Shown here: positions 11,826 through 55,955 of the stretch, in pieces | Numbering within the stretch: the stretch's first letter is position 1 | Layout: every line of letters starts with the position of its first letter | NCBI RefSeq assembly: GCF_963921235.1 | Contig: NC_086108.1 | Span: 25,606,001 to 25,670,000, forward strand | Source: Mobula hypostoma | Lineage: Eukaryota | Direction of reading: 5' to 3' | Length of the DNA: 64,000 nt | The notes under the pieces: generated by a model | Told to the model about the DNA's origin: nothing | The model's input: the letters and a program-made list of their open reading frames with translations, nothing else | The model's database searches: none | Made by a program: the position numbers and the translations under genes

Positions 11826-13219
11826 TTTCACTTGCCACCTGTTATATAGTCAAGGTTCTGGCTGAAATATTTTACAAGGGTTCTGTTGAAGAGTTATCAA
11901 CCTGAAGAATGAATTCTGTTTCACTTTTGCTCCACAAAAGCTCCTTGACCTCCCGGACATTTCAAATATATCCTGTATAGCGTTCCAATCTAACTTAATT
12001 CTGTTGCTAGCTGATTGGTAAAGAATAAGTTAATATGCTTTCTAATTCTTTCCCTGAGGAACTATTAAAATATTGTGACTTTTATGCATTGCAGTTTTTG
12101 GGAATAAAGTTGTCCCATGTGGTCAGGTTAATAAGAAGCCAATCATTCCAATGATAAACTGAGTGTGATGAGACATGGGACCATTTTAATCAAAATTTCT
12201 AAATTTAGTATTGTCCTTAGCTGTTCAAGCAAATTTCAATATCTCTCAATTACCTACTAGTCCATAGAGAATGAAAGAATTATTTGGGAACAAGCAATAA
12301 CATTGTTAATGATCTACAAAAACAGCTATGGAGTGGCACTGATATAGAATTCCAGATTATTCTTGTTACTCACTGGGATCTCAGTCCTCTGACAGTTTTG
12401 TGTTTTTATTATGTTTATGGGAGACAGCACACACCTGTAAAATGTCATCATTTTAGATTTTCTATTGTCTTCAGCCAAGCTTAACCCACTCAACAAAATA
12501 CTGAAGCCTGCATTGGGAGTTATGTAACTGCATTTAATCAATTGTAAATTACAGTCCAGGAGCAAAGGTAGAAATGTTTCTATTGCTTACTGTCAGCAAC
12601 GATCTTGGTGGTGGAAAACACCCACAAATGCCTTACTGACATTTCCTTTTGAGGAATTTTTGCACCTTTTAAGAGAAAAAAGTAATATAATGCCATAATC
12701 AGATACTCATTAACAGTGAGGTATCTTGCATATTCATAAGAAATGTAAGTAGAATTTTAATGACACATATCAGTATAAATTGTTTGCCTGGAGTTCAGTT
12801 GGTGTCAAATTTTTAGCATTTCCTATGAGCTTTGATTAGTCATTGAGAACAAACTTGTTTCATGTTCTTTATTTTCCCGTTCTGTCAGTGTATGATCCCC
12901 CTTATTGGCATTGATATGGCTGAATCATTACCAACAACTTCTTCCTCTTGGAAATCTGACAGAAAATCACTTTCACCCCCTGGTGTTCAATAAAACCTAT
13001 TGACCTAGCAGATTAGACATTGCCAGCAATGTTGAAGGTTAAATCTCATCTTCGTCTGAATGTATCGGTCTCAAATCAGGAGACAGGGAAAGTGTCACTT
13101 TAACAATCTTCTTATTTTCACCATGAAGTCTTTTGATTGACAACTGCTTGAATGTCTTTTTGATGCTACAGGTTTCAGAATCTTAAATTTCCATGATACA
13201 TAATCAACTACAAGTATAT

Positions 13220-14070
13220 TACCATAAGATCATATACAGTCGGACCAGAATTAGGCTATTGACCTAGAGAATCTGCTCAGCTATTTCATCATGGCCCAGG
13301 GTGTATCGATGCAGCAGGGTCCTAGTGCAGGCAATGACCCAGTAATCGGACAATTTAAATGCCGGGTCAGATGGACTGGAAGGGACCAGAGGTGAGGGTT
13401 GAGCCAGTTCTGTTTGCTGCTCTGCGAAATTTACTCTACTCTTCACTACACTGAGGCTGTGGTCTGCTCCATGGTTCATGTTTGCAAACATCGTGATGAT
13501 TTGCCCTGCTGAGGCTGAGACGGTGGGCCTGTTCCAGCTGTTCTGGGCTTTGTGTCCATGGACTTGCTTTCGTTCTGAATGCTGCTGCCTGCTTTTCTTG
13601 TTTGCACAATCTGTGTATTCACTCTCTCTCTGCACACATTGGGTTTTTTAAAATTAGGTTCTTGCAGGTTTCTTGTTTCATGGCTGCCTCTAAGCAGACA
13701 AATCTCAAAGCTGTATAATTTATACATACATTGCTAAGAAACTTTGAACTGTGGACTGCGTCCCTCTCAGCCCCAATCTCCTGCCTTCTCCATATTCCTT
13801 CATGCACTGATTAATCTGGAATCTATCAACCTCTGTCAGAAATATACCCAATGAGTTCGCCTCCACAGTCATCTGTGGCAACAAATTCCACAGATTCATC
13901 ACTCACTGGCCAAAGAAATTCCTCCTCATCTCTGTTCTAAACAGATGTCCCTCTACTCTGAGGCTGTGTCCTCAGGTCTTAGACTCTGCCACTCTTCTCC
14001 ACATCTACTCTATCTAGACCTTTCAACATTTGATAGGTTTCAATGAGATCCCCCTCTCATTTTTGTGAAC
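13220..14070 (-). mobile_element. CR1 3' fragment interrupted (about 13295-13750) by a plus-strand SINE-like element with a Rex1/L2-type tail
   Basis: CR1 tail ACCATAAGA.. and minus-strand NLWNLLPQ; insert tail GGCTGCCTCTAAGCAGACAAATCTCAA recurs at about 36765-36846 and inverted at 44760-44975. Confidence 0.8.
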
Positions 14071-14174
14071 GTCCTTTGAACCCTCTTTAATGTGTTACAA
14101 TGGTACAAAAGTCATACCTGAGGTTATCATTACCCAAAAGTAAAGCACCAGGAAGATTTGGGGCAGCATAGAGG

Positions 14175-14578
14175 GTCTTTGGAGCGTAGAAGGTTGAAGG
14201 GGGACTTGATAGAGGTGCTTAAAATTATGAAGGGGATAGATAGAGTTGATATGGAAAGGCTTTTTCCATTGAGAATAGGGGAGATTCAAACAAAAGGACA
14301 TGAGTTGAGAGTTAAGGGGCAAAAGTTCAGGAGTAACACAAGGGGGAACTTCTTCACTCAGAGAGTGGTAGCTGTGTGAAACGAGCTTCCAGTAGAAGTG
14401 GTAGAGGTAGGTTTGATTTTGTCATTTAAAAAAAATTGGATAGGTATATGGACAGGAAAGGAATGGAGGGTTATGGGCTGAGTGCAGGTAGATGGGACTA
14501 GGTTAGAGTAAGCATTCGACATGGACTAGAAGGGCCGAGATGGCCTGTTTCCATGCTGTAATTGTTATATGGTTATAT
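14175..14578 (+). mobile_element. CR1 3' fragment
   Basis: SLERRRLKGDLIEV..TKGHEL..FFTQRVV; tail TTATATGGTTATAT. Confidence 0.92.
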
Positions 14579-14848
14579 CTGTTGCCTCACAATTCCAGTG
14601 ACGCCAGTTCAGTCCTGGCCTCTGGTGCTGCCATATTTTGACCTTGTGTGCATTCCCTGTGACTGTAGGATTTTCTCCTTCTGCTCTGTTTCCCTCTCAA
14701 ATCCCAAAGAAGTGCTCACTAATAGGTTAATTCACTGCAGTGCATGTAGGTGAGTGACAGAAATTGGTGGGAGTTGATAGGAATGTAACCCGGTGCTTAA
14801 TGGTCAGCACAGAACTCAATGGATACAAGGACCTATTTCCATGCAATA
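14579..14848 (+). mobile_element. tRNA-derived V-SINE (HE1-like), decayed
   Basis: B-box-like CCAGTTCAGTCC, V-domain-like TCCCTGTGACTG..ATCCCAAAGA..AGGTTAATT, CR1-like tail. Confidence 0.65.
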
Positions 14849-15252: not shown

Positions 15253-18168
15253 AGACCATGAGACCATAAGACAAAGGAGCAGAAGTCGGCCATTTGGCCC
15301 ATTGAGTCTGCTCCACCATTTTATCATGAGCTGAACAATTCTCCCATTTAGTCCCACTCCCCCGCCTTCTCACCATAACCTTTGATGCCCTGGCTACTCA
15401 GATACCTATCAATCTCTGCCTTAAATACACCCAATGACTTAGCCTCCACTGCTGCCCGTGGCAACAAATTCCATAGATTCACCACCCTCTGACTAAAAAA
15501 AATTTCTTCGCTTTTCTGTTCTGAATGGGCGCCCTTCAATCCTTAAGTCATGCCTTCTCGTACAAGACTCCCCCATCATGGGAAACAGCTTTGCTACATC
15601 CACTCTGTCCATGCCTTTCAGCGTTCGAAATGCTTCTATGAGGTGCCCCCTCATTCTTCTAAACTCCAAAGAATACAGTCCAAGAGTGGACAAACATTCC
15701 TCACATGTTAACCCTCTCATTCCCGGAATCATTCTAGTGAATCTTCCCTGTACCCTCTCCAACATCAGCACATCCTTTCTTAAAAAAGGAGACCAAAACT
15801 GCCCACAGTACTCCAAGTGAGGTCTCACCAGCACCTTATAGAGCCTCAACATCACATCCCTGCTCCTATACTCTATTCCTCTAGAAATGAATGCCAATAT
15901 TGCATTCACCTTCTTCACCACCGACTCAACCTGGAGGTTAACCTTAAGGGTATCCTGTACGAGGACTCCCAAGTCCCATTGCATCTCAGAACTTTGAATT
16001 CTCTCCCCACTTAAATAATAGTCTGCCCGTTTATTTCTTCTGCCAAAGTGCATAACCATACACTTTCCAACATTGTACTTCATTTGCCACTTCTTTGCCC
16101 ATTCTTCCAATCTATCCGTCTCTCTGCAGACTCTCTGTTTCCTCAGCACTACCAGCCCCTCCACCTATCTTCATATCATCAGCAAACTTAGCCCCAAAGC
16201 CATCTATTCCATAATCTAAATCGTTGATGTACAATGTAAAAAGAAGCGGCCCCAACACAGGCCCCTGTGGAATACCACTGGTAACCGGCAGCCAACCAGA
16301 ATAGGATCCCTTTATTCCCACTCTCTGTTTCCTGCCAATCAGCCAACGCTCTATCCACGTATGTAACTTTCCTGTAAGTCCATGGGCTCTTATCTTGTTA
16401 AGTAGCCTCATGTGTGGCACCTTGTCAAAGGCCTTCTGAAAATCCATATATACAACATCCACTGCATCTCCCTTGTCTAGCCTACTTGTAATTTCTTCGA
16501 AAAATTGTAATAGGTTTGTCAGGCAGGATTTTCCTTTCAGGGATCCATGCTGAGTTCTGCTTATCTTGTCATATGCCTCCAGGTACTCTGTAACCTCATC
16601 CTTGACAATCGACTCCAACAACTTCCCAACCATCGATATCAAGCTAACAGGTCTATAATTTCCTTTTTGCTTCCTTGCCTCCTTCTTACATAGCAGAGTG
16701 ACATTTGCAATCTTCCAGTCCTCTGGAACCATGCCAGAATCTATCGACTTTTGAAAGATCATCGCTAATGCCTCCACAATCTCCACAGCTACTTCCTTCA
16801 GAACACGAGGGTGCATTCCATCTGGTACGGGAGATTTATCTACCTTTAGACTATTCTGCTTCCTGAGTACTTTCTCTGTCGTAATTGTGAATGCGCACAC
16901 TTCTCTTCCCTGCCACCCTTGAGTGTCCGGTATACTGCTGATGTCTTCCTCAGTGAAGACTGATGCAAAATACTGTTCCATTCCTCCGCCATCTCCTTAT
17001 CTCCCATTACAATTTCTCCAGCATCATTTTCTATTGGTCCTATATCTCCTCTCACCTGTCGTTTACTCTTTATATACTTGAAAAAGCTTTTAGTATCCTC
17101 TTTGATATTATTTGCTAGCTTCCTTTCACAGTTAATCTTTTCCCTCTTAATGAGCTTCTTAGTTTCCTTTTGTAAGCTTTTAAAAACTTCCCAATCCTCT
17201 GTCTTCCCACTAATTTTTGCTTCCTTGTATGCCCTCTCCTTTGCTTTAACTTTGGCTTTGACTTCTCTTGTCGGCCACTGTTGCATCCTTTTTCTATTCG
17301 AAAATTTCTTCTTTTTTGGAATATACCTGTCTTGCACCTTCCTCACTTCTCGCAGAAACTCCAGCTACTGCTGCTCTGCCGTCTTTCCCGCCAGTGTCCC
17401 TTTCCAGTCAACTTTGGCCAGTTCCTCTCTCATGCCACTGTAATTTCCTTTACTCCACTGAAATATAGACATATCAGATTTCGGCTTCTCTTTTTCAAAT
17501 TTCACAGTGAACTCAATCATGTTATGATCACTGCCTCCTAAGGGGGTTCCTTCACCTCAATCTCTCTAATCACCTCCGGTTCATTACACAATACCCAATC
17601 CAGTGCAGCCGATCCCCAGTGGGCGCAACAACAAGCTGTTCTAAAAAGGCATCTCGCAGACGTTCGACAAATTCTCTCTCTTGAGATCCAGTGCTGACCT
17701 GATTTTCCCAATCCACTCGCATGTTAAATCCCCCACAATTATCATAACACTGCCCTTCTGACAAGCCTTTTCTATTTCCTGTTGTAATTTGTAGTCCACA
17801 TCAGTGCAGCTGTTTGGAGGCCTACAAATAACTGCCATCAGGGTCCTTTTACCCCTGCGATTTCTTAGCTCAACCCATAAAGATTCTGCACCTTCCGATC
17901 CTATATCACCTCTTTCTAATGATTTAATATCATTTCTTACCAATAAAGCCACGCCTCCCCCTCTGCCTACCTTCTTATCCTTCTGATACACCATGTATCT
18001 TTGGTCGTTCAGCTCCCAGAGACATGCATCCTTTAGCCAGGTCTCAGTGATGGCCACAATATCATACCTGCCAATCTGTAGCTGTACGACAAGATCATCC
18101 ACCTTATTCACTATGCTGCATGCATTTAAGTATAACACCTTAAGACCAGTATTTGGTACTTTTTGCCT
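15253..18168 (-). mobile_element. CR1 LINE, nearly complete ORF2 (APE endonuclease + RT), frameshifted
   Basis: LYLNACSI..AITETWL (EN), YRPVSL, DFQKAFDKVPH, GIPQGPVLGP, FADD across five overlapping ORFs. Confidence 0.96.
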
Positions 18169-18493
18169 TGAAGGTCAGGAAACACAACTGCTCCTCCTTC
18201 CCCATCATCCTCAACACGTGTGCCCCGCAGAGCTGTGTGCTGAACCCATTGTTGTATACTCTACTCACACATGACTGCACAGTCAAACACCTGAGTATTC
18301 ACATTGTCAAGTTCACCTATAACACAATAGCGGTGGGGCTCATCACCAACAACATCTATGAAGAGCAGTTAGAACAGCTTGAGGCCTGCTGCCAGTCAAA
18401 TAAGTTCTTCCTCAATGTCAACAAGCAAAGGAGGTGTTTATTGACGTCAGGAGAACTTGCACCTTTCACACCCCTCTTTACACTGACAGCACA

Positions 18494-21181
18494 GGTCCCA
18501 CCACCATCTCCTGGGTCCTCAGAGACTCCACCATCCCCCCTTGAACACCTCAACACTCGCCTCTCTTCAGATGCTACTAACCACCTTCCTCCCTTTGATT
18601 CCAGCTCTCATCCACACAGTCTTTACAATTCCTTCTCTGAGGCAGAACATTCTGTCCTCAGTAAGGGCCTCACCTTTATCCCCTTGCATCCACACCTCAG
18701 TGAGTTCTGCACCCACCATGACGCTGAGCTCTTCATCCAGTGCCTCTGACTCCATGCCTATTTCTTTGGCAAGGACTCTCCAGCCCACACTGATGACCCC
18801 TTCTTCCATCCAACCCTCCTTCTCTTCCTGAACACCCGCTCTGATCTTCTGCCTGCTCTGGATATTTTCACTAACAACTGCTGACAAGATATCAACCACC
18901 TTGACTTTACTACTCCTCTCTCCAACTCTAACCTCACTCCTTCCAAACGCACTGCTCTCCACTCCCTCCACACTAATCCTAACCTCACCATCAAACCCGC
19001 AGATAACGGGGGTGCTGTAGTAGTCTGGCGGACTGACCTCTATCTTGCTGAAGCCAAGCGACAACTCTCAGACACCTCCTCTTACTTACACCTTAAACAG
19101 GACCCCACTAGGGAGCAGCAGGTCATTGTCACCCACACCATCATTGAACTTATTAACTCTGAGGATCTCCCATCCACTGCCACCAACCTCATAGTTCCCT
19201 TACCCCTCACCTCCCATTTCTATCTCCTTTCTAAGATCCATAAACCTGCCTGACCAGATAGACCATTTTATGTCTTGTTCTTGCCCCACCGAACCTATAT
19301 TTCATACCTTGACTCTTTCTTTTTCTCTCTTCCCCTTCCTCCGTTCAGTCCTTTCCTACCTACATGCTTCGCATTTCACATGCTCTTGATCTTTTCAATG
19401 GCTTCAAGTTCCCAGGCTGTCCTATTTTCACCATAGATGTCCAGTTCCTATACACCTCCATTCCCCATCTGGAAGGCCTCAAAGCCCTCGTTTCTTTCTG
19501 GATACCAGACCTAACTAGTTCCCCTCCACCACCACTCTCCTCCAACTAGCAGAACTGGCCCTCAGTCTCAATAATTTCTCCTTCGGCTCCTCCCACTTCC
19601 TTCGGGAAAAAAAGGTGTAGCCATGGGCAGTCGCATGGGTCCCGGCTATGCCTGCCTTTTTGACGCTACATGGAACAGTCTATGTTCCAACCCTACACCA
19701 GTATCACTCCCCAACTTTTCCTATGCTACATTGACTGCATTGGTGCTGCTTCCTGCACCCATGCTGAGCTCGTCGACTTCATCAACTTTACTTCCAATCG
19801 CCCTGCCCTCAAATTTACCTGGTCCATTCCTGACACCTCCCTCCCCTTTTTTAATCTCTCTGTCTCTGGAGACAGCTAATCTGCTGATATTTTTTATAAA
19901 CCCACTAATTCTCACAGCTACCTACACTATACCTCTTCCCACCCTGTCAGTTGTAAAAATGCCATCCCCTTCCGTCAATTCCTTTGTCTATGCTGCATCC
20001 GTTCCCAGGACAAGGCTTTTCATTACAGAACTAATGAGATGTCCTCCTTCTTCAAAGAAAGGTGCTTCCCTTCCTCCACCATCAATGCTGTCCTCACCTG
20101 TCTCTCTTCCTTTAGCGCACGTCTGCCCTCATCCCAACCACCCGCCATCCCACCTGGGATAGGGTTCCTCTTGTCCTCACCTACCACCCCATCAGCCTCC
20201 ACGTCCAGTAGATAATTCTCCATAACTTCTGTCATCTCCAATGGGATCTCACTACCAAGCACATCTTTGTTTTCCCCCTCTTTCAGCTTTCCACAGTGAT
20301 CGCTGCCTACGCGACTTCCTTGTTCACTCATCCCTCCCCACTGTTCTCCCTCCTGGTACTTATCCTTGCAAGTGGAACAAGTGCTACATCTGACCCTACA
20401 GCTTCTCTCTCACCAGCAATCAAGGCCCCAAACAGTCCTTCCAGGTGAGGCAACACTTCTCCTGTGAATCCTTTGGGGTCATGTGCTGTATCCGGAGCTC
20501 CTGGTGTGGCCTCCTGTACACCAGTTAGACCCATCATAGATTGGGAGACTGCTTTGCTGAGCACTGTCACTCTGTCCACCAGAAAAACTGGGATCACCCG
20601 GTGGCCACTCATTTCAATTCTACTTCCCATTCCCACTCCGATATGTCAGTCCATGGTCTTCTTTACTGCCGAAATGAGGCCAAACTCAGGTTGTAGGTGC
20701 AACACCCTATATTCCATCTGGGGAGCCTCCACCCTGATGGTAAGAACAATGATTTCTTGAACTTCCGGTAATTGCCCCAACCCTCTCCTTCACCATTCCC
20801 CAAACCCATTTCTCTCTCTCACTTTACCTCCTTATCTGCCTGTCACCTCCCTTTGGTGCTCTTCTCCCTTCCATGGCCTTCTGTCCTTTCCTATGAGATT
20901 CCCCCTTCTCCAGCCCATTATCTCTTTCACCAATCGACTTCCCAGCTCTTTACTTCACCTCTTCCCGGTTTCACCTATCACCTACCTTGTACTTCTTCCT
21001 CCACCCCTCCTCCCCCCACCTTCTTACTCCGACCTTATCTTTTTTTCCAGTCCTGATGAAGGGTCTTGGCTTAAAATGTCAACTGTACTCTTTTCCATAA
21101 ATGCTGCCTGGCCTGCTGATTTCCTTCGGCATTTTGTGTGTATTAATTTGACTTCCAGCATCTGCAGTTTTCTCTTGTTTG
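18494..21181 (+). mobile_element. Penelope-like element (RT + GIY-YIG endonuclease pseudogene + 3' pseudo-LTR)
   Basis: VLSKGLTFIP, LTIKPADNGGAVVVWR, GVAMGSRMGPGYACLF, LCYIDCIG, decayed GIY-YIG VMCCIRSSWCGLLY..RLGDCFAEH; pyrimidine-rich pLTR with hammerhead motif. Confidence 0.92.
21048..21085 (+). ncRNA. Minimal type I hammerhead ribozyme motif, decayed (Penelope pLTR)
   Basis: CAGTC-CTGATGA-A-GGGTCTTGGCTT-AAAA-TGTC-AACTG; core GAAA mutated to AAAA. Confidence 0.7.
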
Positions 21182-21759
21182 AGACTCAAAAGCAGTTACT
21201 TTTCTCGTGCAGTAAGGCTGATCAGCTCCTCCACCCATTAACTCACATTTCCACACCGTCCACTACCACTGACTTAAACTTTCCTGTCAGTCACCTTGTG
21301 TACAGACATCCCTGTACCTAGTGTTACCTTATGGACATTCAATCAATCAATGTATATAAGCTGTTTTATGCATTTGTATTCACATTTATTGTGTTATTTT
21401 TATTGTCTTCTTTATCCTATTGTGCTTTTTTTGTGCTGCATAAAATCTGGAGTAACGATTATTTTGTTTTCCTTTACACGTGTGTACTGGAAATTGCATT
21501 AAATAATTTTGAATCTAGAATCTTGAATTAACTCTCCAACAATTCTACCACTCACCTGAACTAGAAACAATTTACAGTGCACAATTGATCCACCAGCTGA
21601 CCCATTTTTTGAATGTGGAAGTAAACCAGCTGACCTGAGGAAATGCAACAGTCACAGGGAGAAGGTGTGGACTCCACACAGAGAGCTTATTACTGAACAC
21701 AGTGTTCTAGCACTACGAAGCAGTGGCTTCACTGGCTATGTTACTCTGCCAGAGGTGGG

Positions 21760-21951
21760 ATGATAGAGGAATCTGGACAAAAAGTGTTGGAAACACTCAA
21801 GTGGCATTTTTGGAAAGAACAACAATGCTTCGGGTCAGTCTTTTGAGCAGAATGTAAACAGTAAAAATTAAATCTGTTTCTTTTTCCAGGGTTGCTGCCT
21901 GACCTGCTGAATCTACCCAGCATTTGATTTCAGATTTCTGACATCTACAGT
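21760..21951. mobile_element. Old inverted-repeat element made of two head-to-head Penelope pLTR ends
   Basis: Left arm AAGTGTTGGAAACACTCA.. is the degenerate reverse complement of right arm GCTGCCTGACCTGCTGAATCTACCCAGCATTT. Confidence 0.6.
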
Positions 21952-22269
21952 TATTAATTTTCATATAACTTTGAAAGGATTAAATGTTCGTAGACAGTAA
22001 TGAGATTACAATGAGGCAGATCATACTTTGCTATAAGTAGCTGTTCCCCGGGGAACTGGCACCTATCAGTCCTCTGCTCTTCAGTACATTTGTTTTCTGC
22101 GTCTATGCACCATGAGATGCTGGAGGGCAGGTGCTGGTTCATCTCACCTGCTGCTCTATTGCTGCACTCTGGGGTTGGAAGGCGAACGATGCCAGTCATG
22201 TTGAGCTATCTAGTCCCTTGGTCTCACACTACCTCTGCAGGAAGGTGATGACGGCAAAGTACACAAGCT

Positions 22270-23074: not shown

Positions 23075-24910
23075 CAGAAAGAATATAGAATATGGAAATC
23101 TATAGCATATTACAAGTCCTTTTGGCCCACAATGTTGTGCCGACCATGTAACCTACTCGAGAAACTGTCTAGAATTGCCCTACCACATAGCCGTCTATTT
23201 TTCTAAGCTCCATGTGCCTATCTAAGAGTCTCTTAAAAGATCCTATTGTATCCTCCTCCACCACTGTCACCGGCAGTGCATTCCACACACCCATCACTCT
23301 CTGTATGGAAAAATTCACCCCTGACAATCACCTCTGTACCTACTTGCAAGCACCTTAAAACTATGGCCCCTTGTGTTAGACATTTCAGCCCTGGGAAAAA
23401 AGCCTCTGGCTATCCATACAATCAATTATTCTAATCATCTTATACACCTCTATCAGGTCACCTCTCATCCTCCGTCACTCCAAGGAGAAAAGGCCAAATT
23501 CACTCAACCTATTCTCATAAGGCACACTCTCCAATCCACACAGCATCCTTGTAACTCTCCTCTGCATTCTTTTTATAGTATCCATATCCTTCCTGTAGTG
23601 AGGTGACCAGAACTGAACACAGCACTCCTAGTGGGGTCTGACCAAAGTCTTATATAGCTGTAACATTACCTCAAATTTCTTGAACTCAATCCCATGGTTG
23701 ATGAATGCCAACACACCATATGCCTTCTTAACAACACTGTCAACCTGTGCAGCAGCTTTGAGTGTCCAATGGACACGGACTCCAAGATCTCGCTGATCCT
23801 CCACACTGCCAAGAGTCTTACCATTAATATTATAATCTGTCTTCAAATTTGACCTTCCAAATTGAACCGCTTTACAATTAACTGGGTTGAACTCCATCTA
23901 CCACTTCTCAGCCCAATTTTGCATCCCAGCGATGTCACGTTTCAATCTGACAACCCTCCAGACTATCCACACCACCAACCTTTGTGCCATCAGCAAACTT
24001 ACTAACCCACCCTTCTAGTTCTTCATCCAGGTCATTTATAAAATTCACAAGGAGGGGTCCCAGAACAGATCTCTGCAGAATACCACTGGTTACCGACCTC
24101 CATGCAGAATATGAAACATCTAGAACCACCCATTGCCTACTGTGGGTAAGCCAATTCTGGATCTACAAGGCAAGGTCTCCTTGGATCCCATGCCTCCTTA
24201 CTTTCTGAATGAGCCTTACATGGGGAACCTAACCAAATGCCTTACTGAAATCCATATACACTACATCCACTGCTCTACCTTCATCAATGTGTTTTGTTAC
24301 ATTCTCAAAGAATTCAATCAGGCTCATAAGCAATGAACGCAAACAACAGGAATTCTGCAGATGCTGGAAATTCAAGCAACACACATCAAAGTTGCTGGTG
24401 AACGCAGCAGGCCAAGCAGCATCTATAGGAAGAGGCGCAGTCGACGTTTCAGGCCGAGACCCTTCGTCATAAGCAATGACCTGCCCTTGGCAAAGCCATG
24501 CTGACTATCCCTAATCAGATTACGTCTCTACAAATGCTCATAAATCCTTCCTCTCAGGATCATCTTCAACAACTTGCTCATCACTGAAGTAAGACTCACT
24601 GGATTATAATTTCATGGGTTATCTCTAGTTCCTTTCTTGAACAAGGGAACAACATTTGCAACCCCCTAATCCTCTGGTACTTCTCCCGTCCGTATCGATG
24701 ATTCAAAGATCATCGCCAGAGGCTCATCAATCTCCTCCCTCACTTCCCATGGTAGCCTGGGGTATATCTCATCTGGTCCCGGTGACTTCTCTAACTTAAA
24801 TCTTTTCAAAAGCTCCAGCACATCCTCTCTCTTAATGTTTATATGTGTTTCAGTCCACTCCATCTCCACAATTGCTGAGGTCCTTTTCCCTGGTGAATAC
24901 TGAAGCAAAG
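23075..24910 (-). mobile_element. CR1 LINE fragment (RT to 3' end)
   Basis: KSPGPDEIYPRL, VTSGILQRSVLGP, SKFADGTK, LYKTLVRPH on the minus strand. Confidence 0.93.
24337..24466 (-). mobile_element. Young 130-bp solo Penelope pLTR end with partial hammerhead, inserted in CR1
   Basis: 13-bp TSD TCATAAGCAATGA at 24324-36 and 24467-79; minus strand TGACGA-A-GGGTCTCGGCCT-GAAAC-GTC-GACTG. Confidence 0.92.
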
Positions 24911-26400: not shown

Positions 26401-26449
26401 TGATTAACTGTGAATAGGCTGACTTCCATTTGTTGAGCTTCAGTATGGA

Positions 26450-26800: not shown

Positions 26801-27047
26801 TGTATTTGGCTGTCTTTATAATATGGCGCGACTGAGGACTAGCATGAATTTAGTCCTGAGTTGTAGCATCTCTGCGTCCTGACATTCCTGACATGTACTT
26901 GCAGTTTGTCATAGCAAATGATTCTGTTGCAGATGATTAACCCCGATGGCTAGTGGAGCTGGTTAATTTATTCTGAAGCTATGCATGTCATGGAAGTGTG
27001 AAGACAAGAGTTCTTCTTTGTAGGACACTCTATTTGATTGACAGATA

Positions 27048-43500: not shown

Positions 43501-43670
43501 AATAGTCAACGTTTTGGGCTGATACCCTTTCTCAGAACCTGAGGAAGGGTCTCGGCCCAAAACATCAACTGTTTGTTCATTTCCCTGGATGCTACCTGAC
43601 CTGCTGAGTTCCTCCAGCGTTTTGTCTGTGTTGCTTTGGATTTTCAGCATCTGCAGAATTTCTTGTGTTT
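43501..43670 (+). mobile_element. Penelope pLTR end with inverted 5' arm (hairpin 43501-43573) holding two opposed hammerhead motifs
   Basis: AGTCAACGTTTTGGGCTGATACCCTTTCTCAG-AAC-CTGAGGAAGGGTCTCGGCCCAAAACATCAACT. Confidence 0.85.
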
Positions 43671-44299
43671 ATAATTGTGAAATAGTCCAACAATCATTAT
43701 TGCTCATCTTCTGCATTAAAAGAACTCCAGAGGCTGCAATTAATAGCCAAAAGAGCAGTCCTCATCATTAAGGATTGAAAAGATCTGCCTATTCCTCACT
43801 AGCACAAATGTTGCCATTAATAACATTTGAGTTTTATTGTGCTATTGTAAATGAAAAAAACACTTTTGAATCATCAGCTTTTTCTCAAATATTTCCATGT
43901 TTCACAGATAAGACTGCAGTAGAGATGAAAAGAATATATCAGTACTGCTATCTTCTACCATTCACCCAGCCGACAATTGTCCCAGTTTAAGCTTCTCCGC
44001 ATTTGCCTTCCATCCTTACTGTTGTCAATCTTCTACACAGATTTGAAGAAAGCCATTAACTTCCACAGGCTCAGGTAAGACTAACAAGCTGAATAAAAGC
44101 TTCACAGTTCAGCAAGTCTGACCTTCTCACTGGTTTAAATATACATTCTGTTGCAGATCAATAAGCATAAAATTCAATAGCAGTGCACTGAAGAAGCAAA
44201 AACAATGATCGTCATTGCTGTGGACATCGTAAAGAAATATACAAAGGTTTTTTTTAATAGGCTTTGATAACATTAAATCAGGGAATCTTCAGGAAACTC

Positions 44300-46745: not shown

Positions 46746-49700
46746 TATAAATAAATATACGTCTCTTGTAGTGCTAAGTGGTTATAGTTTTTCTGTGATG
46801 AAATTGTGATTAGGGTTGAGGGTTGGTTCATGAATTGAATGGGTGAAGGGAAGTAGCTGTTTTTGACCATGGTTGTGTGGGAATTTCAGCTTTTCTACCT
46901 CTCATCGAATGGCAGCTGTGAGAAGATTGCATAGGCCACATGGTGGGGACCTTTGATGATGGGTGCTGCCATATGAGGCAGCACCTCATGTAAATACTTC
47001 TACATTCGATAAAATTTATTCTCAGAAGGTATTTTTCCATCAACTTTGACTGGGATCTATAAAATCTTGGTGGCAATTGTATGAGAGGGTAATAGCCTCC
47101 AGTCACTATTGGCACCTCACTTCTGTGCTTAGAGAATTCCTAAGGTTTGCAGCATTTCAGATGCCTGGCTGTTCTGACACAACCCCCCGAACCAGTACTG
47201 GGAAACAAGGCGCCTGCCACCATGCCTATCTGCCTTTGGTATTGCCAGTGCTCTCTGCTCTTCTGTGACTTTCGGCAGTGACCAGATTGGTAGCCACTTC
47301 TCTTCAGAGAGATGCGGACAGAACACCAATGATCATCAGCCAGTTTCAACAGTATTGGAGGAGCTGAACCCTGAGTTTAAGAACATAAGGTACAGGAGCA
47401 GCAGTGGGTCTATCGGCCAAGTGTAGTTAGAGACACAGTGAGCCTGGTTCTGAACACCTCAGCAAGGGGAAACATTATACCTATATTCACCCTTTCAATC
47501 TCGATAAGAAACATAGAAGCATAGAAAATAGATGCAGGAGTAGGCCATTTGGCCCTTCCAGCCTGCACCGCCATTCAATATGATCACGGCTGATCATCCA
47601 ACTCAGAACCCTGTACCTGCATTCTCTCCATACCTCCCGATCCCTTTAGCCACAAGGGCCATATCTAACTCCCTCTTAAATATAGCCAATGAACTGGCCT
47701 CAACTGTTTCCTGCGGCAGAGAATTCCACAGATTCACCACTCTCTGTGTGAAGAAGTTTTTCCTCATCTCGGTTCTAAAAGGCTTCCCCTTTATCCTTAA
47801 ACTGTGACCCCTCATTCTGGACTTCCCCAACACCAGGTAAAATCTTCCTGCATCTAGCCTGTCCAATCCCTTTAGGACTTTATACGTTTCAATAAGATCT
47901 CCCCTCAATCTTCTAAATTCCAGTGAGTATAAGCCTAGTCGATCCAGTCTTTCATCATATGAAAGTCCTGTCATCCCAGGAATTAATCTGGTGAACCTTC
48001 TTTGTACTCCCTCTATGGCAAGAATGTCTTTCCTCAGATCAGGAAACCAAAACAACACACAATACTCCAGGTGTGGTCTCACCAAGGCCTTGTACAACTG
48101 CAGTGTTACCTCCCTGCTCCTGTACTCGAATCCTCTTGCTATGAATGCCAGTATACCATTCGCCTTTTCACCACCTGCTGTACCTGCTTGCCCACTTTCA
48201 ATGACTGATGTATAATGACACCCAGGTCTCATTGCACCTCCCCTTTTCCGAATCGGCCACCATTCAAATAATAATCTGTTTTCCTGTTTTTGCCACCAAT
48301 GTGGATAACCTCACATTTATCCACATTAAATTGCATCTGCCATGAATTTGCCCACTCACCTAACCTACCCAAGTCACCCTGCATCCTCTTAGCATCCTCC
48401 TCACAGCTAACACTGCCGCCCAGCTTCGTGTCATCCGCAAACGTGGAGATGCTGCATTTAATTCCCTCATCCAAGTCATTAATATATATTGTAAACAACT
48501 GGGGTCCCAGTACTGAGCCTTGCGGTACCCCACTAGTCATTGCCTGCCATTCTGAAAAGATCCCGTTTACTCCCACTCTTTGCTTCCTGTCAACCAACCA
48601 ATTCTCTATCCACATCAGTACCATACCCCAATACCGTGTGCTTTAAGTTTGCACACTAATCTCCTGTGTGGGACCTTCTCAAAAGCATTTTGAAAATCCA
48701 AATATACCACATCCACTGGTTCTCCCCTATCCACTCTACTAGTTACATCCTCAAAAAATTCTATGAGATTCGTCAGACATGATTTTCCTTTCACAAATCC
48801 ATGCTGACTTTGTCCGATGATTTCACCGCTTTCCAAATGTGCTGTTATCACTTCTTTGATAACTGACTCTAGCATTTTCCCCACCACCGATGTTAGGCTA
48901 ACCGGTCTATAATTCCCTGGTTTCTCTCTCCCTCCTTTTTTAAAAAGCGGGGTTACATTAGCCACCCTCCAATCCTCAGGAACAAGTCCAGGATCTAAAG
49001 AGTTTTGAAAAATTATCACTAATGCATCCACTATTTCTTGGGCTACTTCCTTAAGCACTCTGGGATGCAGACCATCTGGCCCTAGGGATTTATTTGCCTT
49101 TAATCCCTTCAATTTACCTATCACCACTTTTCTACTAATATGTATTTCCCTCAGTTCCTCCATCTCACTAGACCCTCGGTCCCCTACTATTTCCGGAAGA
49201 TTAATTATGTCCTCCTTAGTGAAGACAGAACCAAAGTAGTTATTCAATTGGTCTGCCATTTCCTTGTTCCCCATGATCAATTCACCTGTTTCTGACTGTA
49301 AGGGACCTACATTTGTCTTAACCAATCTTTTTATTTTCACATATCTATAAAAGCTTTTACAGTCAGTTTTTCTGTTCCCTGCCAGTTTTCTCTCATAATC
49401 TTTTTTCCCTTTCCTAATTAAGCCCTTTGTCCTCCTCTGGTGGACTCTGAATTTCTCCCACTCCTCAGGTGAGCCACTTTTTCTGGCTAATTTGTATGCT
49501 TCTTCTTTGGAATTGATACTATCCTTAATTTCCCTTGTCAGCCACGGGTGCACTACCTTCCCTGGTTTATTCTTTTGCCAAAATAGGATGAAAAATTGTT
49601 GTAGTTCATCCATGTGATCCTTAAATGCTTGCCATTGCATATCCACCGTCAACCCTTTAAGTATTATTTGCCAGTCTATCTCAGCTAATTCACGTCTCAT

Positions 49701-50955
49701 ACCTTCAAAGTTACCCTTCAAGTTCAGAACCTTTGTTTCTGAATTAACTATGTCACTCTCCATCTTAATGTAGAATTCCACCATATTATGGTCACTCTTG
49801 CCCAAGGGGCCTCTCACGACAAGATTGCTAATTAACCCTTCCTTATTGCTCAATACCCAGTCTAGAATAGCCTGCTCTCTAGTTGGTTCTTCGACATGTT
49901 GGTTCAAAAAACTATCCCACATACATTCCAAGAAATCCTCTTCCTCAGCACCCTTACCAATTTGGTTCACCTAATCTATATGTAGATTGAAGTCACCCAT
50001 TATAACTGCTGTTCCTTTATTGCACGCATTTCTAATTTCCTGTTTAATGCCATCCCCTACCTCACTACTATTGTTAGGTGGCCTGTACACAACTCCCACC
50101 AGCATTTTCTGCCCCTTAGTGTTATGCAACTCTACCCATATCGGTTCCACATCCTCCCGGCTAATGTCCTTCCTTTCTATTGCGTTAATCTCCTCTCTAA
50201 CCAGCAATGCTACCCCGCCTCCTTTTCTTTCATGTATATCCCTCCCGAATATTGAATATCCCTGAATGTTGAGCTCCCATTCTTGGTCACCCTGGAGCCA
50301 TGTCTCTGTGATCCCAACTATATCATATTCATTAATAACAATCTACACTTTTAATTCATCCACCTTGTTACGAATGCTCCTTGCATTGACACACAAAGCC
50401 CTCAGGCTCGCTTTTACAACACTCTTAGCCCATATACAATTATGTTGAAAAGCGGTCCTTCTTGGTTTTTGCCCTGGATTTGCCGGCCTGCCACTTTTAC
50501 TTTTCACCTTATTACTTTTTGCTTCTACCCTCATTTTACACCCCTCTGTCTCTCTGCACTTGTTCCCAACCCCCTGCCACATTAGTTTAAATTCTCCTGA
50601 ACAACAGTAGCAAATTCTCCCCCTAGGACATTGGTTCCAGTCCAGCCCAGGTGCAGACCATCCCGTTTGTACCTGTCCCATCTCCTCCAGAACTGGTTCC
50701 AATGCCCCAGAAATTTGAATCCCTCCCCCTTGCACCATTTTTCAAGCCATGTATTCATCTGATATATCCTCCTATTTCTACTCTGACTAGCACGAGTATT
50801 GGCACTGGTAGTAATCCAGAGATTATTACCTTTGTGGTCCTACTTTTTATTTTATCTCCTAACTCTCTAAATTCAGCTTGTAGGACCTCATCCCATTCTT
50901 TTCATTTATCGTTGGTACCTATCTGCACCACGACCACTGGCTGTTCACCCTCCCA

Positions 50956-53665
50956 TAGAAACCATAGAAACCATACTACAGCACAGAAACAGGCCTTCTG
51001 GCCCTTCTTGGCTGTGCCAAACCATTTTCTGCCTGGTCCCACTGACCTGCACATGGATCATATACCTCCATACACCTCCCACCCATGTATCTGTCCAATT
51101 TATTCTTAAATGTTAAAAAAGAACCCGCATTTACCACCTCGTCTGGCAGCTCATTCCATACTCCCACCACTCTCTGTGTGAAGAAGCCCCCGCTAATGTT
51201 CCCTTTAAACTTTTCCCCCCCTCACCCTTAACCCATGTCCTCTGGTTTTTTTCTCCCCTTGCCTCAGTGGAAAAAGCCTGCTTGCATTCATTCTATCTAT
51301 ACCCATCATAATTTTATATACCTCTATCAAATCTCCCCTCATTCTTCTACGCTCCAGGGAAGAAAGTCCTAACCTATTCAACCTTTCTCTGTAACTGAGT
51401 TTCTCAAGTCCCGGCAACATCCTTGAAAACCTTCTCTGCACTCTTTCAACCTTATTTATATCCTTCCTGTAATTTGGTGACCAAAACTGAACACAATACT
51501 CCAGATTCGGCCTCACCAATGCCTTATACAACCTCATCATAACATTCCAGCTCTTATACTCAATACTTTGATAAATAAAGGCCAATGTACCAAAAGCTCT
51601 CTTTACAACCTTATCTACCTGTGATGCTACTTTTAGAGAATTTTGTATCTGTATTCCCAGAACCCTCTGTTCCACTGCACTCCTCAGTGCCTTACCATTA
51701 ACCCTGTATGTTCTACTTTGATTTGTCCTTCCAACGTGCAATGCCTCACACTTGTCTGTATTAAACTCCATCTGCCATTTTTCAGCCCATTTTTCCAGCT
51801 GGTCCAAGTCCCTCTGCAGGCTCTGAAAACATTCCTCACTGTCTACTACACCTCCAATCTTTGTATCATCAGCAAATTTGCTGATCCAATTTACCACATT
51901 ATCATCCAGATCATTGATATAGATGACAAATAACAATGGACCCAGCACTGATCCCTGTGGCACACCACTAGTCACAGACCTCCACTCGGAGAAGAAATTC
52001 TCTACTACCACTTTTTGGCTTCTTCCATTGAGCCAATGTCTAATCCAATTTACCACCTCTCCATGTTTACCTAGCGAATGAATTTTCCTAACTAACCTCC
52101 CATGCGGAACCTTGTCAAAGGCCTTACTGAAGTCCATGTAGACAATATCCACTGCCTTCCCTTCATCCACTTTCCTGGTAACCTCCTCGAAAAACTCCAA
52201 TAGATTGGTCAAATATGACCTACCATGCACAAAGCCATGTTGACTCTCCCTAATAAGTCCCTGTCTATCCAAATGCTTGTAGATTCTGTCTCTTAGTACT
52301 CCCTCCAATAACTTACCTACTACCGACGTTAAACTTACTGGCCTATAATTTCCCGGATTACTTTTCGATCCTTTTTTAAACAACGGAACAACATGAGCCA
52401 CTTTCCAATCCTCCGGCACCTCACCTGTAGACAGCGATATTTTAAATATTTTTGCCAGGGACCCTGCAATTTCAACACTAGTCTCCTTCCCGGTCTGAGG
52501 GAACACCCTGTCAGGTCCCGGGGATTTATCCACTTTAATTTTCCTCAAGACAGCAAGGACCTCCTCCTTTTCGATCTGTACAGTTTCCATGATCTCACTA
52601 CTTGTTTTGCTTAATTCCATAGACTTCATGCCAGTTTCCTTAGTAAATACAGATGCAAGAAACTTATTTAAGATCTCCCCCATTTCCTTTGGTTCCGCAC
52701 ATAGCCGACCACTCTGATTTTCAAGAGGAACAATTTTATCCCTTACAATCCTTTTGCTCTTAATATACCTGTAAAAGCTCCTTGGATTATCCTTCACTTT
52801 GACTGCCAAAGCAACCTCATGTCCTCTTTTAGCCCTCCTGATTTCTTTCTTAAGTATTTTCTTGCACTTCTTATACTCCTCAAGCACCTTATTTACTCCT
52901 TGCTTCCTATACATGTCATACAACTCCCTCTTCTTCTTTATCAGAGTTGCAATATCCCTTGAGAACCAAGGTTCCTTATTCCTATTTACTTTGCCTTTAA
53001 TCCTGACAGGAACATACAAATTCTGCACTCTCAAAATTTCTCCTTTGAAGGCTTCCCACCTACCGATCACATCCTTGCCAGAGAACAACCTGTCCCAATC
53101 CACACTTCTTAGATCCTTTCTCATTTCTTCAAATTTGGCCTTCTTCCAGTTAAGAACCTCAACCCTGGGACCAGATCTATCCTTGTCCATGATCAAGTTG
53201 AAACTAATGGTGTTATGATCACTGAAACCAAAGTGCTCCCCTACACAGACTTCCGTCACTTGTCCTAACTCGTTTCCTAACAGGAGAACCAATATTGCAT
53301 CCTCACTAGTTGGTCCCTCTATATATTGATTTAGAAAACTTTCCTGAACACATTTTACAAACTCTAAACCATCTAGACCCCTAACAGTATGGGAGTCCCA
53401 ATCAGTATATGGAAAATTAAAATTTCCTACCACCACAACTTTATGTTTCCTGCAGTTGCCTCCTATCTCTCTGCAGATTTGCTCTTCCAAGTCTTGTTGA
53501 CTATTGGGTGGTCTGTAATACAATCCCACTAATGTGGGCATACCTTTCCTGTTTCTCAGCTCCACCCATAAGGACTCAGTAGACAAGCCCTCTAATCTGT
53601 CCTTCCTGAGCACTGCTGTAATATTTTCCCTAACAAGCAATGCTACTCCCCCACCTTTCATTCCT
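50956..53665 (-). mobile_element. Young 5'-truncated CR1 of a second family inserted in ORF1 of the long CR1
   Basis: TSD CTCCCA at 50950-55 and 53666-71; (CCATAGAAA)n tail; uninterrupted ORF2. Confidence 0.95.
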
Positions 53666-53718
53666 CTCCCAATCCAGAATGTCCTGCAGCTGCTCAGAGA
53701 CATCCCTGGCCCTTGCAC
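51205..53718 (-). CDS. CR1 ORF2 open reading frame (partial APE endonuclease + intact RT domain), 837 codons, chimeric N-terminus
   Basis: RT motifs YRPVSLTSVVGKLLE, QHGF, DFSKAFDKVPH, GVPQGSVLGP, FADD. EN N-terminus missing and GDFN is GNFN. Starts at a GTG in host sequence and is frameshifted at a G run near 51215. Expression not shown. Confidence 0.75.
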   Translation of the reverse strand: MQGPGMSLSSCRTFWIGRGMKGGGVALLVRENITAVLRKDRLEGLSTESLWVELRNRKGMPTLVGLYYRPPNSQQDLEEQICREIGGNCRKHKVVVVGNFNFPYTDWDSHTVRGLDGLEFVKCVQESFLNQYIEGPTSEDAILVLLLGNELGQVTEVCVGEHFGFSDHNTISFNLIMDKDRSGPRVEVLNWKKAKFEEMRKDLRSVDWDRLFSGKDVIGRWEAFKGEILRVQNLYVPVRIKGKVNRNKEPWFSRDIATLIKKKRELYDMYRKQGVNKVLEEYKKCKKILKKEIRRAKRGHEVALAVKVKDNPRSFYRYIKSKRIVRDKIVPLENQSGRLCAEPKEMGEILNKFLASVFTKETGMKSMELSKTSSEIMETVQIEKEEVLAVLRKIKVDKSPGPDRVFPQTGKETSVEIAGSLAKIFKISLSTGEVPEDWKVAHVVPLFKKGSKSNPGNYRPVSLTSVVGKLLEGVLRDRIYKHLDRQGLIRESQHGFVHGRSYLTNLLEFFEEVTRKVDEGKAVDIVYMDFSKAFDKVPHGRLVRKIHSLGKHGEVVNWIRHWLNGRSQKVVVENFFSEWRSVTSGVPQGSVLGPLLFVIYINDLDDNVVNWISKFADDTKIGGVVDSEECFQSLQRDLDQLEKWAEKWQMEFNTDKCEALHVGRTNQSRTYRVNGKALRSAVEQRVLGIQIQNSLKVASQVDKVVKRAFGTLAFIYQSIEYKSWNVMMRLYKALVRPNLEYCVQFWSPNYRKDINKVERVQRRFSRMLPGLEKLSYRERLNRLGLSSLERRRMRGDLIEVYKIMMGIDRMNASRLFPLRQGEKKTRGHGLRVRGGKV

Positions 53719-54179
53719 CAGGGAGGCAACATACCCTCCTGGAGTTTCGTTTGTGGCCGCAGAAATGCCTATCTATTCCCCTTGCAATCGAATCCCTTAT
53801 CACTATAGCTCTCCCAATCCTTTTCCTTCCCTCCTGTGTCGCAGAGCCACCCATGGTGCCATGAACTCAGCTGCTGCTGCTTTCCCCTGATGAGACATCT
53901 CCCCCAACAGTATCCAAAACAAGAATTTTGTCATTTCAATGAGATCATCTTCCATTCTTCGAAATTCTAGAGAGTACAGATCTACTCCGTGTCACCTCAC
54001 TTCATGTGACAAATCCATCACCTTAAGGATTGATCTAGTGAACCTTTGCTACAATTCTTTAGCCACAAATCCATCCTCCTTGAAATCAGACCTGTAGTTA
54101 CAGCAATATTTCAGCTGCAGTCTCAACAGGGGCCAATATCAATGGAGAAAGATGAAACATATCATATTCCTTTCCAGAT

Positions 54180-55545
54180 GACTTGGTCATTGACTTCAAG
54201 AAGGAGGTTTTGCACATGCTCATGTCTTCATCAATGGTGCTGAGGTTGAGAGCTTCAAGTTCCTGGGAATGAACGTAAATAACCTGATCACCCTTCAAGC
54301 ACTTAGCCCTGTATGTGGAACAAGTGCTACACCTGCCCCTTATTTTCTCCCTCATCACTACTCAGGGCCACAAACAGTCCTTCCAGTGAGGCAACAGCTT
54401 GGGGTCTACTGTATCCGGTGTTTTCAGTCTGGCCTCCTATACATCAGTGAGACCCAATGTAGATTGAGAGATGACTTCAACATGCACCTCCACTCCATCT
54501 GCCACAACAGGCGAGATTTTCCCAGTGGCCATCTATTTTAATTAAAATTCCCATTCCTATTCCCATTTTCACAAGTCAGTCCATGTCCTCCTCTACTATT
54601 ATGATGAGGCCACTCTCAGGTTGAAGGAGCAAGACCTCATGTTCTCTTTGGGTAGCTTCCTACCTGATGGTATAAACACTGATGTCACAAACTTTCAGTA
54701 ATTTCTCATCCTTCCTCCTTCTCTCTTTTTCCATTCCACAGTAGGGTTCCCCTCTTACCCCTTCTCTTCTCCACTCCTGCCAATCACCTAGCTCTGATGC
54801 CCCTCTTCCTTCCATTTCTCACATGTTCCATTCTCCTCATTGATCAGATTCCTTCTTCTTCAGCCCTTCCTCTTTTCCATCTATCACTTCCCAAATCTAC
54901 TCACTTCATCCACTCTCCCACTTTCCCCCTCACTTGGCCTCATATATCACCTGCCAGTTTGTACTCCTTCCCCCTCACGTTTTTATTCTAGCTTCTTTCC
55001 CCTTTCTTTCCTGTTCTGATGAATGATCTCGGCCTAAAATGTCAACCATTTATTCCTCTCCATAGATGCTGCCTGACCTGCTGAGTTCCTTTAACATTTT
55101 GTGTGTGTTCCCCTCCTTGGACTCTGTCTATACTTTTCGCTACCATAATAGGACAGCTAGCATAATCAAAGACCTCACCCATCCTGGCCATTCTCTCCTC
55201 TCCTCTCTCCATTTGAGGAGAAGGTACAAAAGCCTGAAAAATGTACTACCATATATAAGTTCAAGCACTGCTTCTACCTCATATTTACACTACTATTAAA
55301 TGGTTCCCTAATACGATAAGATGGATACATGACTTTGCAATCTACCTCGTCATGACCTTGCATCTTCTTGTCTACCTGCAGTAGACTGTCCCTGTAGCTG
55401 TTACACTTTATTCTGCATTCTGTTATTGTTTTACCTTGTACTATCTTAATGCACTTGGTAATGCATTAATCTGTATGAACAGTATGCAAGACAAGTTTTT
55501 TTTTGCTGTACCTCAGTACATGTGGCAATAATAAACCATTTCTTG
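54180..55545 (+). mobile_element. Rex1/Babar LINE remnant (54180-54287, 55110-55545) interrupted by Penelope
   Basis: LVIDFKK..INGAEVESFKFLG; IIKDLTHPGHSLLSSL..RRYKSLK; AATAAA tail. Confidence 0.8.
54288..55109 (+). mobile_element. Penelope 3' fragment (GIY-YIG + pLTR, hammerhead remnant 55011-55047)
   Basis: GVYCIRCFQSGLLYISETQCRLRDDF; homologous to 20340-21140. Confidence 0.88.
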
Positions 55546-55669
55546 TTTATTAATGTACCTGTAGGTTTGTATATACTGTAGGAGAAAACAACACGACCGG
55601 TGCCTACTAAAACACAAGCACAAAGGATGCGGGCAAAAATTGTGCATTAATATGGGGACAAAAAGCCAC

Positions 55670-55955
55670 AGGTTCCCCACACTATCCACTGTCCTCTACT
55701 ATCAGATTCCTTCCTCTCCAGTCCTTTACCTTTCCTACCCTCTGGGCTTCACCTATCACCTTCTAGCTATCCTCCTACAGCTCTCCACACTTTTTAAAAT
55801 TTTGGTGTCGTTCCCCTTCTTTTCCAGCTCAGAAGATGGCCGGAAACTTTAATTGTTTAGTCATTTCCATAGATGCTGCCTGACCCACTGAGTTCCTCCA
55901 GCATTTTGTGTGTGTTGCTCTGGATTTCCAGCATCTGCAGACTTTCTCATGTTTA
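55670..55955 (+). mobile_element. Penelope pLTR fragment
   Basis: ATCAGATTCCTTCC..CACCTATCACC..ATAGATGCTGCCTGACC..TTTCCAGCATCTGCAGA. Confidence 0.82.

Follow-up and report, generated by a model that had tools for sequence, protein, structure and literature searches.

Decayed minimal hammerhead motifs in a 64-kb window are probable remnants of the 3′ pseudo-LTR of a Neptune-type Penelope-like element

We propose, with a probability of about 0.78, that the hammerhead-like motifs dispersed across the 64-kb stretch of DNA analysed here (the window) are decayed minimal hammerhead ribozymes (min-HHRs) of the 3′ pseudo-LTR (pLTR) of a Neptune-type Penelope-like element (PLE), and that the autonomous element, by its own reverse transcription, likely gave rise to the units lacking reverse transcriptase (RT) sequence, which would have been dead on arrival. 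Searches with blastn and nhmmer from slices of the window located 11 motif loci, one per 5.8 kb, in agreement with an original prediction of about ten copies at roughly one per 6 kb; the copies were real at the predicted positions and one locus was added. Variant-1 copies were confirmed at 21048-21085 (+), 24438-24469 (-), 26206-26243 (+), 55011-55048 (+) and 55825-55855 (+), and a back-to-back pair comprises a motif at 43503-43540 (-) adjoining another at 43539-43571 (+). A copy expected at 31340-31390 does fall in a locus of the motif family, which proved to consist of two inverted arms meeting within stem II, without a CUGANGA box. The second variant, anticipated at about 11880, 30680 and 32015, was found at 11878-11916, 30675-30713 and 32013-32050 and is homologous to the family (leave-one-out nhmmer E-values of 4e-7 to 4e-6 at four of four variant-2 loci; nothing below E 0.1 in a reversed-window control); the stem II word ascribed to it, AAAGGTCAT, is present in two of these three copies and absent at 11880. 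A further variant-2-like locus, previously unlisted, lies at about 21767-21955. Upstream of the motif the three variant-2 copies have no sequence in common, and no master element for this variant was found inside the 64-kb window. The features are:

11877-11990, plus strand: variant-2 relic of hammerhead and tail (HHR+tail), with two core changes
18498-20770, plus strand: decayed, 5′-truncated ORF of an EN+ PLE, with RT, thumb, linker and C-terminal GIY-YIG and many frameshifts and stops
20771-21047, plus strand: 3′ UTR portion of the pLTR, rich in pyrimidines and common to the copies at 54.3, 55.7 and 26.1 kb
21048-21085, plus strand: min-HHR relic of the long element
21086-21185, plus strand: 3′ tail common to all copies, with two end points at about 21141-21147 and 21181-21185
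21767-21955, no single strand: probable inverted pair resembling variant 2, heavily decayed (plus arm, leave-one-out E 4e-6; minus arm, E 0.01 only, in a profile)
24337-24469, minus strand: short HHR+tail unit inserted into a CR1-like LINE, starting within the core (U4-N7)
26117-26262, plus strand: truncated copy with the 3′ UTR end, the motif at 26206-26243 and the beginning of the tail
30675-30788, plus strand: variant-2 HHR+tail relic, with two core changes
31226-31440, no single strand: inverted pair, old and belonging to a related subfamily, with the arms meeting within stem II and no CUGANGA box
32010-32116, plus strand: variant-2 HHR+tail relic, core changed and shortened
43494-43675, no single strand: inverted pair, the minus arm with the motif at 43503-43540 and the plus arm with the motif from 43539 and the full tail
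54284-55110, plus strand: 5′-truncated copy beginning in the linker/GIY-YIG region and ending at the short tail end
55686-55958, plus strand: 5′-truncated copy beginning in the 3′ UTR, with the motif at 55825-55855 (stem II deleted) and the full tail

The reading as Penelope hammerheads is supported by position: the motif stands downstream of an ORF encoding RT and GIY-YIG, in the same orientation. The ORF was identified by tblastn with P0001, P0004 and P0019 and with a profile of 69 full-length homologues, which matched over positions 180-898 of 901; the homologues carry RVT_1 and GIY-YIG and align along 18633-20756. Pfam and NCBIfam searches of frameshifted window pieces returned no families (6 and 3 pieces, respectively). 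Between RT and EN, 67 of the 69 full-length homologues have a CX2-5CxxC linker; a linker of the CX4CxxC type occurs in the long element at about 20360-20395, with its last cysteine codon broken, and is also readable in frame at 54292. Both the motif at 21048 and that at 55011 stand in sense behind ORF remnants. The linker motif, rather than a tree, points to a Neptune-type PLE, and Nematis shares this linker. The 5′ truncation, inverted arms, optional tail and target-site duplication (TSD) match those of Neptune-clade EN+ PLEs in the available text of Craig et al. 2021 (PMC8557442), in which the optional tail of 30-40 bp corresponds to the gap of about 40 nt between the two 3′ ends seen here; in contrast to that clade, the 64-kb window holds no intact or tandem element copy. 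The long copy is without its 5′ end, and no 5′ pLTR was found in the window.

Judged by its sequence, the consensus of the family represents a minimal type-I hammerhead and has the core boxes CUGANGA, GAAA and UH. The consensus originally proposed agrees with a CpG-aware consensus of the window copies and with loose-end consensuses of 483 contigs (run X2) and 397 contigs (run X7), and was read independently from hundreds of contigs of two organisms. An extra A stands between A9 and 10.1 in all six ungapped copies; the G10.1-C11.1 pair is present in the consensus (among the six copies, two G-C, three G-U and one unpaired), as is a palindromic 15.2-16.2, retained in two of six. The predicted assignment to the min-HHRs of Penelope pLTRs is supported, the motif lying 3′ of the RT-EN ORF and fitting the min-HHR consensus in the available text of Cervera and De la Pena 2014 (PMC4209133), where such ribozymes were described in pLTRs of metazoan PLEs. 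Shared with those min-HHRs are the CUGANGAH core, the extra base before stem II, G10.1-C11.1, the 2-nt palindromic loop III, a short stem I, a U-rich upstream region and an occurrence mostly as single motifs of truncated elements, with some close opposite-strand pairs. By comparison, stem II here is 4 bp, at the short end of the published range, the motif is locally dense, with 11 loci in 64 kb, and the alignment rows and table of that paper covered here include no cartilaginous fish, although its supplement may list a chondrichthyan motif.

Least probable among the readings considered is that a repeat end resembles a hammerhead by chance or without function. This reading would accommodate the Rfam scan of the window, which gave no hammerhead up to E 1 among seven matches, the covariation among ten window copies, which did not exceed shuffles (450 of 500 reached the score), and a fold-energy shuffle z-score near 0, calculated for a consensus with one wrongly called base. 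It does not fit the placement of the motif behind a PLE ORF, the match to all four extra min-HHR features, or a layout near-identical to that of the Acropora Neptune motif (PMC4209133, available text). Nor does it fit related elements, which keep the same hammerhead architecture with different stem sequences. In 80 related loci, core-only matches numbered 41, compared with 5.0 in shuffles, and 18 of the 41 had both stems, compared with 0.025 per shuffled set; stem covariation was strong across four related elements, those four having been chosen by a pairing descriptor. Among 29 related loci on metagenome contigs with enough downstream DNA, seven carry a like motif 530-930 nt behind RT, and the other 22 gave no descriptor match downstream of RT; some metagenome loci also carry inverted truncated partners. 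The family-specific pattern had no match in viral, prokaryote or metagenome contigs, and the related-locus search of viral contigs gave 65 pattern matches and no relatives. The miRNA-like Rfam matches in the window are palindromic repeats.

The motifs in the window are mutated and likely dead, and sit in truncated element copies. None is intact as a ribozyme: a core-plus-stems descriptor had no match in the window, in line with the Rfam result. Both core boxes are kept only in 26206-26243, where stem II is mismatched. Decay of CpG has removed G12 from four of the six ungapped copies, and CpG positions overall are changed at 20/48 compared with 19/173 elsewhere. In the relic at 21048-21085, G12 has become A and the loop III palindrome is lost; at 55011-55048, G12 is lost and stem II damaged; and in the pair at 43494-43675, both arms have lost G12 and each breakpoint lies no more than 3 nt from C3. 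It is very improbable that some copies are still active, cutting host transcripts or giving circular RNAs. The genome-wide consensus is intact, and non-CpG changes in the six ungapped variant-1 copies are rarer in the core (1/59) than outside it (18/114; Fisher p 0.004); however, this contrast is exposed to ascertainment, and four other aligned copies have two core changes each. The absence of descriptor matches and the loss of G12 also argue against activity, as do the dispersed, non-tandem arrangement and the behaviour reported for published min-HHRs, with no activity as monomers and low activity as dimers (PMC4209133, available text). Folding of the monomer consensus predicted stems I and II with pair probabilities of 0.90-1.0, together with a hairpin that hides the core and exceeds the open fold in stability by 2.2 kcal/mol; dimer folding favoured other pairings, by a method unable to represent a double hammerhead.

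The units are, as originally described, short and RT-less, with RT sequence remaining at only 1 of 11 loci. Their reading as non-autonomous, ribozyme-bearing retroposons was not sustained, as they form nested 5′ truncations of an autonomous 3′ end, with starts at element positions 18498, 20341, 20878, 20948, 21041 and 21053 and a common 3′ end. A second 3′ end, about 40 nt upstream, is found in the window at 55110 and among the contigs, 991 and 870 of which have loose ends behind 21141. The copy at 24337-24469 is the youngest short unit and is flanked by an exact 13-bp TSD (24324-24336 and 24467-24479) with 3-nt microhomology; it has neither C3 nor the 5′ strand of stem I. A clear TSD was found at only this one of the 11 loci, other 7-11-nt matches with a mismatch being rejected as chance. 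Six or seven of the 11 loci begin at, or inside, the 5′ half of the ribozyme, and a zone of 30 nt at the ribozyme holds the starts of three of seven variant-1-type loci (p about 0.006, post hoc). Many short copies in related invertebrate-type loci likewise start at the ribozyme 5′ edge; among the contig matches listed (24 rows, with 2,751 more beyond them), no loose end lay at this edge. Uneven 5′ ends, and variant-2 copies without common upstream sequence, are also to be expected from a self-propagating short unit.

We considered whether the HHR+tail units of about 130 nt constitute a separate SINE-like or retrozyme-like non-autonomous family, with its own transcription and with Penelope RT acting in trans, which we regard as unlikely, if less so than chance resemblance or surviving activity. 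The concentration of starts in the ribozyme 5′ half keeps the idea partly alive, and one short unit was inserted directly, with a TSD. Precedents exist in the available texts describing putative non-autonomous PLEs in Chlamydomonas (PMC8557442) and PLE-derived retrozymes in vertebrates, including one chondrichthyan (bioRxiv 10.64898/2026.07.22.740005). These non-LTR retrozymes resemble the window copies in their type-I hammerheads derived from PLE pLTRs and in occurring as dispersed vertebrate monomers, but are defined in the available text by tandem units, each with a complete hammerhead; neither is present in the 64-kb window. The short copies are also nearer to longer copies than to one another: the 43.5-kb copy has its highest identity (83%) to a copy with UTR sequence and only 75% identity to the other short copy, and a 2-nt insertion that it shares with the UTR-bearing copies at 26.1, 55.0 and 55.8 kb is missing from the 24.4-kb copy, as from the long copy. 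The starts of short units cluster within about 25 nt yet differ, falling in stem I, the core or stem II, and some copies are inverted. Contigs cover the UTR and EN sequence upstream densely too (a qualitative observation), and edge-starting arms occur on contigs with RT-coding sequence at three related loci (L012, L052 and L065). Because the short units neither group nor stand in tandem, a separate short-unit family is unsupported, in a small sample: the view of subfamily structure here comes from 11 loci together with contig pile-ups, and pile-up depth is not equivalent to copy number.

Under our preferred reading of truncated insertions from an autonomous PLE, the mechanism would resemble that established biochemically for the Anolis carolinensis Poseidon element (Frangieh et al. 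2024, PMC11167929, available text). By this analogy, the endonuclease would nick the target, internal initiation by RT at either of two tail sites would generate the two 3′ ends, and RT would copy uncleaved RNA through the ribozyme, then halt early or fold back to leave truncated or inverted copies. In Poseidon, as here, the hammerhead is followed by a stretch of about 110-130 nt with two alternative ends, and insertions copy uncleaved RNA, to which we liken the window copies; Poseidon is of a different clade and its ORF starts inside the ribozyme, whereas the long copy in the window is without its 5′ end. Single truncated motifs (PMC4209133) and inverted 5′-truncated arms (PMC8557442) are both described forms of PLE insertion in the available texts. 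Four CpGs would decay after insertion, in most cases taking G12 with them; cleavage by the master motif would require a dimer or the protein of the element. The over-representation of starts at the ribozyme 5′ edge may reflect either a transcript 5′ end in the upstream pLTR, with run-off from the first tail, or stalling at stem I. We tentatively suggest, as a possibility short of even odds, that the short insertions record a Penelope replication intermediate in vivo, in which an uncleaved transcript begins at the ribozyme 5′ edge and RT starts internally at its first tail, that of the 5′ pLTR, then runs off or folds back at that edge. If so, solo and palindromic HHR+tail units of about 130 nt would map the transcript start, and mobilisation would usually proceed with the hammerhead uncut, in Neptune elements of both fish and invertebrates.

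Penelope hammerheads as a kind have been known since 2014, and the window contributes a further lineage and a family of great abundance rather than a new system. A literature search on Penelope hammerheads, pLTR transcription and elasmobranch elements found, in the texts available, no paper devoted to this family, and supplements beyond those texts may list a chondrichthyan motif. The sequencing-run data are contigs, uninformative on cleavage ends, strand or level; in each DNA run, more than 52,000 contigs match 0.7 kb of the family, a depth that is not a copy number. This abundance provides enough insertions to ask whether it is the cleavage site, the ribozyme edge or the transcript start that 5′ breakpoints track.

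The repeat-rich DNA of the window contains sequence homologous to the predicted motif at every locus of the original prediction. Profiles built from the window copies found 11 loci in the 64 kb, one per 5.8 kb, and nothing below E 0.1 in the reversed window. Loci with the second type of stem II (variant 2) are likewise homologous, with leave-one-out recovery of 4/4 (E 4e-7 to 4e-6), including a locus near 21.85 kb missing from the original prediction. The 31.3-kb locus (31226-31440) consists of two inverted arms that meet within stem II, and it lacks the 5' core box. Building a CpG-aware consensus from the window copies reproduced the predicted one, and contigs from two organisms (loose ends of 483 and 397) agree with it in stem II, GAAA, loop III and stem I. 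The hammerhead call was correct, and the motif is of a known kind.

The window holds a decayed Penelope-like element at 18498-21185 (+), the ORF of which aligns with a profile of 69 full-length homologues over positions 180-898 of 901; the only second ORF remnant that this profile detected in the window lies at 54404-54686. The homologues have RT and GIY-YIG domains, and 67/69 carry the CX2-5CxxC linker, described in PMC8557442 as a mark of Neptune and Nematis. The best protein match is from Chiloscyllium, with relatives also in Mobula and Stegostoma, which makes a cartilaginous fish the likely source of this vertebrate DNA. All in sense, the ORF is followed by a 280-nt pyrimidine-rich UTR, the ribozyme motif and a 100-nt tail.

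Related elements were drawn from 80 loci on metagenome contigs encoding related RTs, 29 of which had enough downstream DNA; a descriptor match lay behind the ORF in 7 of these 29 and was absent downstream in 22. In one family, the motif almost matches the one published for Acropora Neptune. Core-only matches, with pairing not required, numbered 41 in the 80 loci versus 5.0 in shuffles, and both stems were present in 18 of the 41 (0.025 per shuffled set). When four related families, chosen for pairing, were combined with three window copies, both-sided changes appeared at 5 of 7 pairs. The window copies alone showed no excess covariation. The refuting condition of the original prediction that concerns covariation thus does not refute it at the family level and says nothing about individual copies.

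The core-plus-stems descriptor found no intact hammerhead in the window, and an Rfam search of the window gave no hammerhead match. Among six ungapped variant-1 (main-type) motifs, four have lost the core residue G12, two retain the loop III palindrome, and the core is complete at 26206-26243 alone, where stem II has a mismatch. Substitutions are concentrated at four CpGs (20/48 versus 19/173 elsewhere). Outside CpGs, the core of these six appears conserved (1/59 changes versus 18/114 in non-core positions); because the remaining four aligned copies have two core changes apiece, we do not take this as selection on the genomic copies. The motif copies in this window are probably dead.

The original prediction had cast the short units as non-autonomous retroposons mobilised by Penelope, a family claim that the copies do not support. 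Aligned to the element's 3' end, they start at element positions 20341, 20878, 20948, 21041 and 21053 and have two alternative 3' ends, separated by about 40 nt; the end that gives the shorter tail also occurs in 991 and 870 contigs. These two ends fit the 30–40 bp tail described as optional in PLEs (PMC8557442; PMC3846280); in Anolis Poseidon, this tail is flanked by two sites at which RT starts internally (PMC11167929). The 24.4-kb unit (24337-24469, -) starts inside the hammerhead core; it interrupts a CR1-like LINE and is flanked by an exact 13-bp target-site duplication. The 43.5-kb locus (43494-43675) is an inverted pair, each breakpoint ≤3 nt from core position C3. These variant-1 short copies are 75% identical to each other, whereas the 43.5-kb copy is 83% identical to the UTR-bearing copy at 55.8 kb (55686-55958, +) and shares with three longer copies a 2-nt insertion not found in the 24.4-kb unit or the long element. 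No tandem units were found in the window. Given the shared 3' ends, differing 5' starts, kinship to longer copies and lack of tandems, the short units in this small sample of window loci look like recurring by-products of autonomous masters. The motif at 24438-24469 (-) belongs to the youngest short unit and to a separate subfamily, in which position 7 is C and the first pair of stem II is G-U (or A-U). Some family contigs lack most of the 3' UTR (about 410 nt; joints 20633/20636 to 21044) and others about 80 nt of it (joints 20959/20966 to 21040).

The 5' ends of the window loci gather at the 5' half of the ribozyme, and 3 of 7 variant-1-type loci start in one zone of 30 nt (p about 0.006, calculated post hoc). 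Nothing upstream is common to the three variant-2 copies, and no clean tail-only copy was seen among profile matches in the window. Of 13 partial arms in the related loci, 4 begin at -9 to +14 relative to C3. Short arms from the ribozyme 5' edge, like those at 43.5 kb, occur in related Neptune-type loci, the first of which is a similar back-to-back pair:
L052:26-219, short arm
L012:2-61, short arm
L065:2523-2595, short arm

An uncleaved transcript would start in the upstream pseudo-LTR (pLTR), and RT would run off at its 5' end; transcription starts inside the pLTR in Penelope and Chlamys (as described in PMC8557442), and the main in vitro substrate in PMC11167929 is uncleaved RNA. Alternatively, RT would stall and fold back at stem I. 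The clustering may reflect either event; the rival explanation is a short family that propagates itself.

In the family consensus, stems I and II are predicted to form; loop III has 2 nt, so that stem closure would be impossible in a monomer, and the predicted lowest-energy fold buries the core and lies lower than the open fold by 2.2 kcal/mol. This prediction fits either the inactive monomer and weakly active dimer published for minimal hammerheads (PMC4209133) or the protein-assisted cleavage reported in PMC11167929. In two DNA runs, core position 6 reads C in 382 and 349 contigs (CUGCUGA or CUGCCGA; window 21074-21082) with an agreement of only 0.61-0.63, seemingly a subfamily outside the window. 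A6C is described as a core change that occurs naturally and favours Mn2+ (PMC7151607).

At 27717-28200, two open frames, of 128 and 146 codons, overlap on opposite strands; neither had a Pfam match, and no host exon was recognised there. Other repeats in the window include:
27033-27251, short palindromic element, then a common 176-nt sequence
32306-32607, the same
58234-58633, the same
51205-53772 (-), long CR1-like LINE copy
47500-50700 (-), long CR1-like LINE copy
15266-18174 (-), long CR1-like LINE copy
4952-5590 (+), long CR1-like LINE copy
5403-5590 and 9049-9236, CR1-like 3' end, exact 188-bp direct repeat, 3646 bp apart
766-1344, LTR-retroelement remnant
9166-10424, LTR-retroelement remnant
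60798-62568, LTR-retroelement remnant
3694-4137, Tc1-type transposase remnant

The palindromic elements, which look MITE-like, gave rise to spurious Rfam miRNA matches. The LTR-retroelement remnants comprise integrase zinc finger, zinc knuckle and RT sequences. In one CR1-like LINE copy, an open frame of 855 codons encodes endonuclease and RT domains, and the 188-bp direct repeat reflects either a recent duplication or an assembly effect.
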